A stretch of 64,000 nt of DNA from an uncultured delta proteobacterium (lineage in GTDB: Bacteria; Desulfobacterota; Binatia; Binatales; Binataceae). Location of the stretch: NCBI GenBank assembly GCA_963724765.1, contig CAVRVY010000004.1, forward strand, positions 1,376,001 through 1,440,000, in the 5' to 3' direction. This document shows, in pieces, positions 14,054 to 15,328 of this stretch; the first letter of the stretch is position 1, and the number at the start of each line of letters is the position of its first letter. The notes under the pieces are model-generated. The model had not been told where the DNA came from. It worked only from the letters and a program-made list of their open reading frames with translations, and did not search any database. A program made the translations under genes and the position numbers.

Positions 14054-15328
14054 TCAAACAATCTTGCGCGCGGTTTCCTGGATCCGATCCATCCACATCG
14101 TAAGCGACGGCGCGTAAACCTGCGGCACGCATTCCGCGCAGATGTCGTCGGCGAGCGTGCGGATGTTCCTGAGCGCGTTGTCGAGCGTAACGGCACGGGC
14201 GAAGCCCAGCGGCAGACAGACCAGAACGTCGCTCAGCGTGCGCAGGGCGGACGCGAGGGCGATCAGAATAGCTTCGAGCACCGCCTCCTCGGGCGCGCGT
14301 TGCGGGCTGTAAAGGAGCGCATGGATTGCACGAAGTTCGCCGCCGAACACCAGCACCGCGCTCTCCAGCCGTGTGCCGACTCGTTGCGGCTGGCTCACGC
14401 CCTCGTCGCACATCATCGCGATCGACTGCAACTCTGAGAGCACCAGGTGAAGGTTGGTCTGCACGCGGTCAAGCCGGGCCTCGAAGGTGACGTTGTAGAT
14501 GTCGCGCACCAGCGCGTCCTGGCGGCGCGAGACGAACTTGGCGACCAGCGCGCCGAAGATGAGCAGCCCAATGACCGCCTCGAAGATCGAGAGGATCCTT
14601 ATCGGCCCAATCGGCAACACGTCGCCGTAGCCGACCGAGGTGGTGGTGACGAAACTGAAATAGAGCGCGCTCAGCAGCCCGTCAAACGTCCCCGCGATCG
14701 GCCTGCCGCTATCGACCAGCCCCGGACGGCGCGAAAACCCGGTCAGCCAGTAAAGGCCTCCGCACACCACGACCATCCCAAGCCATACGAAAAAAATCTG
14801 CGCGGGCGAGAGGCTTTCGATCAGATCGAGCAGCGCGTTGCCCCAGTGCCGGCTGCGCGACAACACCGGTTGCTCCGGCCGTGTCCGGCGCGCCGGCGAG
14901 GGCGTGAATTGCGCAGCCGATTGCAGCGCGGGCGGCGGCGACGGCTCGGCGCTGGCTGGCGCGCTCTTTACCGGCAGACCGGCCTCTTTCCAATCGGCGA
15001 TACCACCGCGGTAGTGCCGCACGTTGATATAGCCGAGCTGCTGGAGCAGGCGGACCGCCTGTGCGCCGGCCGTTCAGGTGAACTTCGCGCAATAGGCGGC
15101 GATGTCGGCGTTGCGGTCGGGCAACACCTGCGGCGCGCGATGTTCCACTTCGGCCAGTGGCAGATTGATGGCGCCGGAGATGTGCTCGGCCGCATATGCC
15201 TCGCGCGGGAGCACGTCGACCAGCAGCAGCGTCGTCTCGTCGAGACGGCGCCTGATCTCGTCGCGCGAAATCTCGCGGACTTCCTCCGCCGGAGCGGCGC
15301 CGGCATTCTCAGCCGAGGTTTGATCCAT
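14054..15328 (-). CDS. probable selenoprotein: rhodanese (Cx4U, U85) fused to a 2-TM potassium-channel pore domain, 424 aa with TGA readthrough
   Basis: ORFs 15074-15328 and 14054-15022 are in one frame, separated by a single TGA (15074-15076). Joined reading is ...IAAYCAKFT-U-TAGAQAVRLLQQLGYINVRHYRGGIADWKEAGLPV, a complete rhodanese domain, then TM1, pore LYFSFVTTTSVGYGD and TM2. SECIS-like hairpin follows the TGA. Confidence 0.75.
15031..15073 (-). promoter_or_regulatory. putative bacterial SECIS element
   Basis: mRNA after UGA: upper stem CAGGCG-[GUC]-CGCCUG (15047-15061) with loop G 19 nt after UGA; lower stem GGCCGG/UCGGCU. Confidence 0.6.

Follow-up and report, generated by a model that had tools for sequence, protein, structure and literature searches.

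Sequence comparison supports the view that a minus-strand gene in the 64,000-nucleotide stretch of DNA analysed here (the window) encodes one 424-amino acid Cx4U selenoprotein in which a rhodanese domain is joined to a K+ channel pore. The product is very probably a selenoprotein because of the conserved in-frame TGA, the Sec/Cys pair, a hairpin that is missing from most Cys forms and the full selenocysteine machinery of the genome. The initial annotation had proposed such a selenoprotein channel from an 84-amino acid ORF that stops at a TGA within the rhodanese loop, and all that it states about the sequence was reproduced, coordinates and YCAKFT ending included. The features of the locus are as follows.

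15337..15365, minus strand: promoter-like site GTGACA-17-TATTCT from a consensus scan, ending 8 bases before the ATG
14054..15328, minus strand: entire gene of 424 codons and a TGA stop, encoding a Cx4U rhodanese, a linker, a 2TM K+ pore and a helical C-terminal domain
14981..15265, minus strand: rhodanese homology domain, residues 22-116 (Pfam PF00581, Foldseek)
15074..15076, minus strand: in-frame TGA at codon 85, interpreted as selenocysteine from ortholog and homolog comparison
15047..15061, minus strand: SECIS-like hairpin CAGGCG-GUC-CGCCUG (stem of 6 base pairs, GUC loop), whose first base is the 13th beyond the UGA
14861..14965, minus strand: Pro/Ala/Arg-rich linker, residues 122-156, predicted disordered
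14528..14860, minus strand: K+ channel module, residues 157-267 (Pfam Ion_trans_2, AF2 secondary structure)
14621..14647, minus strand: selectivity filter TTTSVGYGD, residues 228-236 (alignment A4)
14057..14527, minus strand: C-terminal five-helix domain, residues 268-424 (AF2), with Cys307 and Cys397-x-x-Cys400
13955..13982, no strand assigned: hairpin flanked on either side by T/A runs, lying between the gene stop and the converging tRNA-Met
13879-13955, plus strand: tRNA-Met, converging on the gene

Domains of the predicted protein

The Pfam rhodanese match (PF00581) crosses the TGA and scores 61.2 bits against a cut-off of 22.2 (E 1.4e-16). The top Foldseek matches are rhodaneses (3ilm, 6mxv and 3tp9; probability 1.00, rmsd 1.3-1.6 A over 105-109 columns). 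Cys80 lies at the canonical catalytic position, aligns with the loop cysteine of 6mxv and PspE, and is kept in 46/47 sequences of alignment A4. Sec85 is five residues further on. Active sulfurtransferases possess a six-residue loop with basic residues, CRxGx[R/T]. The loop found here, CAKFTUTA, has no arginine and is two residues longer, and HMMER placed a gap of two residues in 6mxv and PspE opposite it. Since the loop lacks those basic residues and is longer, sulfur transfer by this domain is uncertain. Elsewhere in the window another Cx4U rhodanese is encoded that has no channel and is apparently secreted.

The linker leads from the rhodanese to the channel module. Its residues 127-156 have pLDDT under 50, and in alignment A1 the linker varies and contains gaps. 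In the AF2 model an amphipathic helix (157-172) is followed by TM1 (175-198), a pore helix (215-230) and TM2 (from 243), the last three with pLDDT 80-95 and arranged in the TM1/pore helix/TM2 topology. Residues 217-267 match Ion_trans_2 (PF07885) with 51.3 bits against 22.5 (E 1.1e-13). Pfam recognizes both domains of the frame that the initial annotation had followed past the TGA into the C-terminal half of the rhodanese, a Pro-rich linker and a TM-pore-TM module. Sequence matches to KirBac3.1, K2P, NaK and KcsA chains were also found, the similarity to solved channels being weak (E 1e-4 to 1e-2). Within the filter T228, S231, G233, G235 and D236 are invariant in 47/47 sequences of A4 and Y234 is at least 90% conserved; few stretches of the protein are as well conserved as the filter and the post-TM2 helix. 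The protein is predicted to form a tetramer and to conduct K+.

The C-terminal domain comprises 157 residues, is helical and lies outside any known family. Its AF2 pLDDT is 91.8; the full-length predicted model has a pTM of only 0.43. C397 and C400 are present in 47/47 and C307 in 44/47 sequences of A4. Pfam gave no family (one match at E 0.052), PDB sequences gave coiled-coil noise with no meaningful match, Foldseek gave nothing at E <= 0.001, and the best VIA-align Z of 11.1 is within the generic helical-bundle range, a meaningful level being about 13. These searches show neither a new nor a known fold. Its 212 representatives at E <= 0.001, out of 1.84 billion, showed the domain in no other context than this channel. 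Complex prediction for the rhodanese and C-terminal domain of a natural Cys-form homolog returned a score of 0.00, which says nothing either way.

A proposed redox gate

As an explanation of the whole we favor, with moderate confidence, a selenoprotein K+ channel with redox or persulfide gating by Cys80 and Sec85. Translation would begin at the ATG at 15328. SelB and Sec-tRNA(UCA) would place selenocysteine at UGA codon 85, directed by the hairpin that follows it, and the ribosome would then complete the protein. At its N-terminus the product would have a cytoplasmic rhodanese with a widened loop (C-A-K-F-T-U), joined by a flexible linker to a two-helix K+ pore of the KcsA/Kir type, and it would end in five cytoplasmic helices that make up the CxxC-containing C-terminal domain. 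Cys80 and Sec85 may form a reversible selenenylsulfide directly upon oxidation or, by an alternative route, Cys80 may take up sulfane sulfur and Sec85 resolve it. The change in the rhodanese would reach the inner gate via the strongly conserved post-TM2 helix (KFVSRRQ...RLDRVQTNLH), and K+ flux would track the redox or reactive-sulfur state of the cell. Both the Cys80-Sec85 switch and the coupling of rhodanese to gate are putative. Because the pore is encoded 3' of the UGA, no channel would be made unless selenocysteine is inserted; the initial annotation had drawn the same consequence, which follows from the gene order and is helped by the lack of conserved internal starts.

The protein may instead be a selenoprotein in which the rhodanese is an enzyme, not the sensor of a gate, and the channel serves as a tetrameric membrane anchor or K+ controls the enzyme. 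Candidate activities would be those of a membrane-tethered sulfur/selenium transferase or a polysulfide, thiosulfate, selenite or arsenate-like reductase. The catalytic position of Cys80 agrees with this, the nearest curated models (MoeB, PspE and TsoB) are enzymes or redox proteins, and the apparently secreted Cx4U rhodanese in the window has no channel. TsoB couples a related UxxxxU rhodanese to a DsbD-like membrane domain, according to the accessible text of PMC13188914. The strong conservation of the K+ filter and post-TM2 helix is what a working, gated pore would lead one to expect, and no sulfur- or selenium-pathway partner gene is conserved near the 74 loci compared. We regard an enzyme as the unlikely reading, though the most serious competitor of the gated channel.

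Some prokaryotic two-helix K+ channels carry cytoplasmic sensor domains, with RCK (as in MthK) and cyclic-nucleotide gating among the known modes, and here too a cytoplasmic soluble domain probably controls the gate. The protein resembles KcsA, KirBac3.1 and SthK in TM1, pore helix, TVGYG-type filter and a TM2 that extends into a cytoplasmic helix. Unlike theirs, the proposed sensor is N-terminal, is a rhodanese and would contain selenocysteine, and the C-terminal domain is outside known families.

Decoding of codon 85

The ATG at 15328 opens an 84-codon ORF on the minus strand that ends in YCAKFT and is followed by TGA. Codon 85, within the rhodanese loop YCAKFT-U-TA, is the sole in-frame TGA of the 424-codon frame. 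Past it the frame stays open until the TGA stop at 14056-14054 and encodes TAGAQAVRLLQQLGYINVRHYRGGIADWKEAGLPV, then the Pro/Ala-rich linker, then FSFVTTTSVGYGD. Orthologs are colinear with the gene across residues 1-424. The -10 region upstream of the ATG is kept in genus orthologs, and a leaderless mRNA from the promoter-like site is possible. The hairpin at 13955..13982 is likely a two-way terminator.

Codon 85 is TGA in 16/17 orthologs from 61 related genomes, down to 50% identity and with conservation on both sides; the remaining ortholog (L041) has TGC. A scan of species genomes gave 69 TGA and 10 TGC/TGT among 79 classified loci of the best 80 kept, counts that are biased because the query was a Sec form, the loci kept were those closest to it (45 further relatives were left out) and relatives are not independent. 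The 10 Cys loci fall in at least four separate groups. Full-length database homologs have cysteine at both loop positions in 45/46 cases, and the sole exception has lost both together. Recurrence of TGA at the same codon is, across these alignments, far beyond chance. The initial annotation had asked whether homologs carry TGA or cysteine at this codon and whether the two halves are fused elsewhere. Both answers agree with its reading, and 47 uninterrupted rhodanese-channel fusions occur among the 120 matches listed. None of the refuting conditions named in the initial annotation came true.

Gene callers give 3' ORFs of 314-341 amino acids, and a GTG is present at 15022. The locus might then yield two products, an 84-residue peptide ending at the UGA and, from an internal start, an 'ion channel' some 322 residues long. 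This would split the rhodanese through its active-site loop, and uninterrupted Cys homologs are common. The GTG is preceded by GGCTATATCAAC, which is without an AGGAGG-like stretch, as had been pointed out in the initial annotation. Codon 103 reads GTG in 9/17 orthologs and GTC, GTT, CTC or GCC in 8/17, and codon 98 reads ATG in about 9/17 (both read from the alignment). By this comparison the internal starts used by gene callers are not conserved, and neither has Shine-Dalgarno-like bases in front of it. A stop at one exact codon over several phyla, swapped only for cysteine, is not expected of a plain terminator. Two products are thus very improbable; the rhodanese match across the TGA and the unconserved internal starts support reading the locus as one protein.

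In the model of bacterial SECIS elements, for which fdhF serves as comparison, a stem-loop whose apical loop contains G (and U) lies immediately downstream of the UGA. The hairpin CAGGCG-GUC-CGCCUG of the initial annotation was located at 15061-15047 and has this form, with limited covariation and no Rfam match. In Sec forms the hairpin spans +13 to +31 and has G-U in the apical loop. G17, G18, C19 and G21 are invariant in 68/68 unique Sec-form sequences, and U22 is found in 63/68. The local folding energy of Sec forms, -11.4 +- 2.3 kcal/mol, compares with -4.5 +- 2.7 for Cys forms and -4.7 +- 2.9 for control windows taken from these genes; only 2.8% of the control windows reached -11.4. The hairpin is weak or absent in 9/10 Cys forms, and one (L077) retains a stable hairpin. 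Despite amino-acid changes the hairpin persists in two registers, and its closing pair can be G-C or C-G. Genus-level covariation was not significant (the observed score was reached by 158/500 shuffles), and synonymous-site conservation around the hairpin is no outlier within the gene, so conservation of the stem could partly stem from the conserved peptide AQAVRLL. An Rfam scan of 14900-15200 (E <= 10) gave two chance-level matches and no SECIS family.

The genome carries selA, selB, selD and tRNA-Sec, all above curated cut-offs, so that the machinery for which the initial annotation had suggested a search is in place. ARAGORN calls a tRNA-SeC with anticodon UCA. selA is above cut-off in 57/61 genomes, including the Cys-form genome G036, and therefore does not discriminate between Sec and Cys forms; G033, counted in both the ortholog and the selA tallies, has selA and no full-length ortholog, and none of the conclusions depends on it. 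A second tRNA-Sec-like tRNA has a Cys anticodon and could suggest that the UGA is read as cysteine or tryptophan by a suppressor or near-cognate tRNA, not as selenocysteine. The anticodon of this tRNA is GCA, not UCA, a true tRNA-Sec(UCA) and selA, selB and selD are all present, the hairpin has SelB-site placement and a G-U loop, and TGA is the main ordinary stop, ending 19/37 long ORFs in the window (more than any other stop) as well as the gene itself. Such readthrough is hardly credible, and selenocysteine would be the residue inserted at codon 85.

A nonsense mutation, pseudogene or sequencing error, for which a bare in-frame stop is the sole argument, can be dismissed, with the identical TGA in 69 loci of different species genomes, a protein conserved on both sides and the same letters in a contig from run X2, which may be the source sample. 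The X2 contig (Logan) covers 14981-15133 with zero differences and is weak support alone because of that possible origin. A contig from run X4 covers 15044-15070 only, and those from X1 and X3 miss the TGA. None of the runs listed with matches to the locus was an RNA run.

Related proteins and distribution of the family

Five forms of rhodanese selenoprotein are tabulated in the accessible text of a 2026 review (PMC13188914). Forms 1-4 have the motifs UxxS, UxxG, CxU (NF041203, 'LYCAU') and UxxG, and form 5 is TsoB (NF045694), a rhodanese/DsbD fusion-like selenoprotein with UxxxxU. Like forms 1-4, the present protein has a rhodanese fold with selenocysteine at or within the active-site loop, and like them it has Cys-containing homologs. 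As tabulated, selenocysteine replaces the catalytic cysteine in forms 1, 2 and 4, whereas here that cysteine is kept and selenocysteine follows five residues on in a longer loop; in form 3 the distance is two residues. With CxxxxU instead of CxU, the protein scores 39.9 bits against the 115 required for rhodanese_LYCAU (NF041203).

TsoB as described there is alike in having two rhodanese redox residues spaced by four, selenocysteine at the second and a fused integral membrane module. NF045694 was the second-best NCBIfam match by E-value (3.6e-13, residues 14-128), with 48.5 bits against a cut-off of 805, and the match covers the rhodanese part only (profile positions 40-164 of 572). The proteins differ in the first loop residue, which is cysteine here and selenocysteine in TsoB, and in the membrane part, a K+ pore with a new helical domain here and a DsbD-like electron conduit in TsoB.

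YgaP of E. coli likewise has a cytoplasmic rhodanese tied to transmembrane helices. To our knowledge it lacks selenocysteine, a pore signature and any second redox residue in its loop. Its structures 5hbl and 5hbo were among the fold matches, and their PDB entry titles describe the catalytic cysteine as S-nitrosylated or S-sulfhydrated.

The initial annotation knew of no selenoprotein channel with this architecture, and none was found in the literature searched. The words "channel" and "potassium" do not occur in the accessible text of PMC13188914, whose list has no channel and describes none of forms 1-4 with one. In the available portions of PMC13326102 ("rhodanese", "channel") and PMC12013277 ("rhodanese", "potassium", "channel") these words had 0 occurrences, and that of PMC7539508 held nothing relevant to a rhodanese-channel fusion or a selenoprotein channel. 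Full-text searches returned neither a rhodanese-K+ channel fusion nor a selenoprotein channel, with listing in supplementary tables possible.

No neighboring gene is common to the whole family; the best real cluster occurs in 17/74 loci. A cluster of 28 loci was rejected as an antisense ORF that overlaps the channel gene. A sigma-54 regulator and a kinase adjoin the gene as a pair that is retained in 11-12 loci only. The unshared neighbors and a C-terminal domain met only with this channel were counted in favor of a self-contained sensor.

Among metagenome-assembled genomes of Binatia and Acidobacteriota the family is widespread, and the runs with contigs at the locus carry the labels peat, soil and freshwater sediment. 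Public gene calls comprise just the 3' piece under the name 'ion channel' or 'hypothetical protein'; they are wrong in most family members seen, giving an "ion channel" minus its sensor. Such truncation makes the family invisible to surveys of domain architecture.

With few exceptions, the selenoproteins known to us are transporter subunits or soluble enzymes of redox reactions. We tentatively suggest that this is the first ion channel with selenocysteine, a K+ channel family that occurs in Binatota, Acidobacteriota and further phyla from soil and peat, with a Cys-Sec selenenylsulfide/persulfide gate and selenium-dependent synthesis. If so, it would be a new functional class, a sixth form of rhodanese selenoprotein and a compact natural K+ channel sensing redox state or persulfide. 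The natural U-to-C variants at the 10 Cys loci permit a direct test of the contribution of selenium. Through such a channel, redox, reactive-sulfur and selenium status would bear directly on the membrane potential and K+ balance of these bacteria.

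Reading frame and gene borders

The rhodanese–K+ channel gene occupies a 424-codon frame whose sole internal stop is a TGA at codon 85 (15076-15074); its terminal stop is also TGA (14056-14054). The features of the gene in the window are as follows.

14054-15328 (-), rhodanese–K+ channel gene
15061-15047 (-), hairpin CAGGCG-GUC-CGCCUG, starting at the 13th base past the UGA
15337-15365 (-), promoter-like GTGACA-17-TATTCT, ending 8 bases before the ATG, with a -10 region conserved in genus orthologs

The 84-codon ORF ahead of codon 85 ends in ...DIAAYCAKFT. Past the TGA the frame continues as TAGAQAVRLLQQLGYINVRHYRGGIADWKEAGLPV, followed by a Pro/Ala/Arg-rich stretch and a membrane module with FSFVTTTSVGYGD. 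The Pfam Rhodanese domain (residues 22-116, E 1.4e-16) spans the TGA, and Ion_trans_2 covers residues 217-267 (E 1.1e-13). The initial annotation had pointed to the short ORF, the TGA, the open frame, the filter module and the hairpin, all of which were present on re-examination. Its main reading, one rhodanese–K+ channel selenoprotein, is supported by direct observations: gene structure and domain composition, a conserved TGA with Sec/Cys pairing, the hairpin and the Sec machinery. The gene very probably encodes a genuine selenoprotein fusion.

A product made only from the region after the TGA would hold just the last strand and helix of the rhodanese. The internal starts chosen by gene callers are, from ortholog comparison, not conserved: codon 103 is GTG in 9/17 orthologs and GTC, GTT, CTC or GCC in the others, and ATG stands at codon 98 in about 9/17. 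No Shine-Dalgarno sequence was found upstream of the true ATG. Because the promoter-like site ends so close to this ATG, the channel mRNA may be leaderless. The channel gene stop is separated from a converging tRNA-Met by a hairpin with T runs, and the gene looks monocistronic. At 15409-18825 (+), transcribed away from it, lie an AtoC/NtrC-like, sigma-54-dependent response regulator of 517 aa and an AtoS-like sensor histidine kinase of 606 aa; this pair is retained beside the channel in 11-12/74 loci and is not family-wide.

Conservation of the TGA and hairpin, and presence of the Sec machinery

The initial proposal turned on whether homologs hold TGA or Cys at codon 85 with both flanks conserved, and they do. 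When 61 related genomes, including the window's own, were searched in six frames, 17 full-length orthologs were found (100% to 50% identity). Exactly one TGA is present in 16/17, at the same codon in 16/16, within the motif YC[AG][KRS][FYD]T-TGA; the remaining ortholog, 50% identical and from related genome G036, has TGC. Mean column identity across the two flanks is 72% (14 sequences), with invariant residues on each side.

The survey was extended by a pattern scan using one genome per species, which yielded 125 relatives. Among the best 80 of 125, 69 have TGA (Sec forms), 10 have TGC or TGT (Cys forms) and one, a broken second copy, is unclassifiable; 69:10 is not an unbiased frequency, as these loci are related to one another and were those closest to a Sec-form query. 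Within these 80, Sec-form genomes are labeled Binataceae, Binatus, Binatia, "delta proteobacterium", Proteobacteria, Acidobacteriota, Holophagales, Vicinamibacterales, Eisenbacteria and Thermodesulfobacteriota, and Cys-form genomes Binatus, Myxococcota, Methylococcaceae and Vicinamibacterales/Acidobacteriota. A quick maximum-likelihood tree built from 79 sequences, its midpoint root serving only for display, splits the 10 Cys forms into four groups and requires at least four state changes. The nearest neighbors of each group are Sec forms, which, on a tree without a proper root to set the direction, fits repeated Sec-to-Cys replacement.

Several copies are broken. Matches in two related genomes (G009, G004) change frame within the C-terminal domain, the unclassifiable second copy (L057, in G016) is spread over three frames, and a 51% identical second copy in G001 (G001:C1:764592-765686) has one TGA and one TAG. 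Assembly errors or paralog decay may account for these.

Among 120 proteins listed from a collection of 5.8 billion, the close relatives are all 3' pieces (314-341 aa) with PF07885 alone; they bear the names "ion channel" or "hypothetical protein", and some are from Candidatus Binataceae. The fusion recurs elsewhere, as the initial annotation would have it: 47/120 are uninterrupted PF00581 + PF07885 proteins (47-57% identity). For alignment 46/47 were used, leaving out the 634-aa P0074, in which methyltransferase domains (PF13847, PF13649, PF08241) precede the rhodanese-channel unit. Cys is present at both loop positions in 45/46, and both are replaced, by Ala and Ser, in the sole exception, P0105. 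Their joint retention or loss suggests that residues 80 and 85 function as a pair. On these alignments, TGA and Cys share a position in the way that is usual for a true selenoprotein.

The hairpin was compared with the U of UGA numbered 0. G17, G18, C19 and G21 are invariant in 68/68 unique Sec-form sequences and U22 is found in 63/68. Two stem registers occur: in 46 sequences 6-7 pairs are capped by a GUN or 5-base loop, and 22 have a GGUC tetraloop, most of them with 4 pairs; as closing pair, G-C occurs in 11 and C-G in 9. The folding energy of +11 to +36 is -11.4 ± 2.3 kcal/mol in Sec forms and -4.5 ± 2.7 kcal/mol in Cys forms (n=10; Mann-Whitney p 6e-6, overstated since the sequences are related). 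Control windows of the same size elsewhere in the same genes gave -4.7 ± 2.9 kcal/mol, and 2.8% of them attain -11.4. The hairpin is lost in 9/10 Cys forms, one (L077) retaining a stable hairpin. Both its position and its G-U loop are as expected from the bacterial SECIS model and from the fdhF element of E. coli. Almost no covariation was seen at genus level, conservation at nearby synonymous sites is unexceptional, and an Rfam search at the hairpin gave no match.

The Sec machinery on which the proposal depended was all found in the window's genome: selA (560.9 bits), selB (383.3 bits), selD (388.3 bits) and a tRNA-Sec (Rfam 70.2 bits; ARAGORN tRNA-SeC, anticodon UCA). TGA is not reassigned: it is the stop of 19/37 of the longest non-overlapping ORFs in the window and of the channel gene.

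Three further loci lie outside the window. selD (G000:C3:1462704-1463630), directly beside selB (1463731-1465623), is itself probably a selenoprotein, since it has its own in-frame TGA. A 91-nt tRNA (G000:C4:64277-64365 (-), equal to L020 1499-1589) reaches 61.9 bits against Rfam tRNA-Sec, where the gathering score is 47, yet ARAGORN calls it tRNA-Cys, anticodon GCA; it is a tRNA-Cys resembling tRNA-Sec. A DsbD-like ORF (G000:C3:859271-860473), about 3.6 kb from selA (854315-855667), hits the TsoB model over its C-terminal part (profile positions 166-571) at 420 bits.

Protein anatomy and known rhodanese selenoproteins

An AlphaFold2 model built on 53 sequences (mean pLDDT 82.9, pTM 0.43) gave the following layout, with the filter placed at residues 228-236.

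Residues 18-121, rhodanese fold
Residues 127-156, disordered
Residues 157-172, amphipathic helix
Residues 175-198, TM1
Residues 215-230, pore helix
Residues 243-308, TM2, continuing as a single long helix
Residues 314-423, four further helices

The best Foldseek matches are single-domain rhodaneses (rmsd 1.3-1.6 Å over 105-109 columns). Cys80 aligns with the loop Cys of 6mxv and PspE (HMMER), although the loop is two residues longer in the window protein and lacks Arg. The pore matches KirBac3.1, K2P, NaK, KcsA and SthK chains weakly. Modeled alone, the C-terminal 157 residues reach pLDDT 91.8 and pTM 0.85, with no Pfam family and no convincing match to solved structures. Their profile found 212 cluster representatives among 1.84 billion (E <= 0.001); of 150 listed, 75 have this pore motif and 75, fragment-like, do not. 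Cys397-x-x-Cys400 is invariant in 47/47 sequences and Cys307 is present in 44/47. No signal peptide was read in the sequence. Because Arg/Lys clusters lie ahead of TM1 and past TM2, the positive-inside rule places both the rhodanese and C-terminal domains in the cytoplasm.

A 2026 review of prokaryotic selenoproteomes gives five rhodanese-type forms: UxxS, UxxG, CxU (NF041203), UxxG and TsoB (NF045694, UxxxxU, a DsbD-like fusion), and the words "channel" and "potassium" are absent from its main text (PMC13188914). The channel protein scores well below cut-off on the TsoB (48.5 bits, cut-off 805) and LYCAU (39.9 bits, cut-off 115) models. Like TsoB, it has the four-residue spacing and is fused to a membrane module, but its first redox residue is Cys and its membrane module is a K+ pore. 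No rhodanese-K+ channel fusion or selenoprotein ion channel was found in the full-text literature searched, and an earlier listing elsewhere is possible.

A second Cx4U rhodanese, a 164-codon ORF at window 49290-49781 (+) with a signal-peptide-like N-terminus, is probably another unannotated selenoprotein. Its in-frame TGA (49641-49643, loop FYCANTR-U-MASHG) is followed by a G+C-rich hairpin and is present in 18/21 matches among 31 related genomes; the other 3 have no stop. It matches TsoB and LYCAU weakly, under their cut-offs.

A possible redox-gated channel

Gating of a K+ channel by redox state or sulfur is somewhat favored as the function. Sec85 would be inserted in a SelB-dependent manner into a protein forming a tetrameric K+-selective pore, with the rhodanese domain as sensor. 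A plausible mechanism is that Cys80 and Sec85 alternate between selenol/thiol and selenenylsulfide, triggered either by direct oxidation or by a persulfide formed on Cys80, which Sec85 would then resolve. The signal could reach the inner gate via the highly conserved post-TM2 helix (KFVSRRQ...RLDRVQTNLH), and the C-terminal CxxC motif might provide a second site for redox chemistry or metal binding. Under the main rival reading, the rhodanese domain would be an enzyme tethered to the membrane. None of the neighboring genes is shared by the whole family, in keeping with a sensor and effector combined in one protein.

These proteins are a widespread, mis-annotated selenoprotein family of new architecture, in which selenium shortage should also halt channel synthesis because the pore lies 3' of the UGA.
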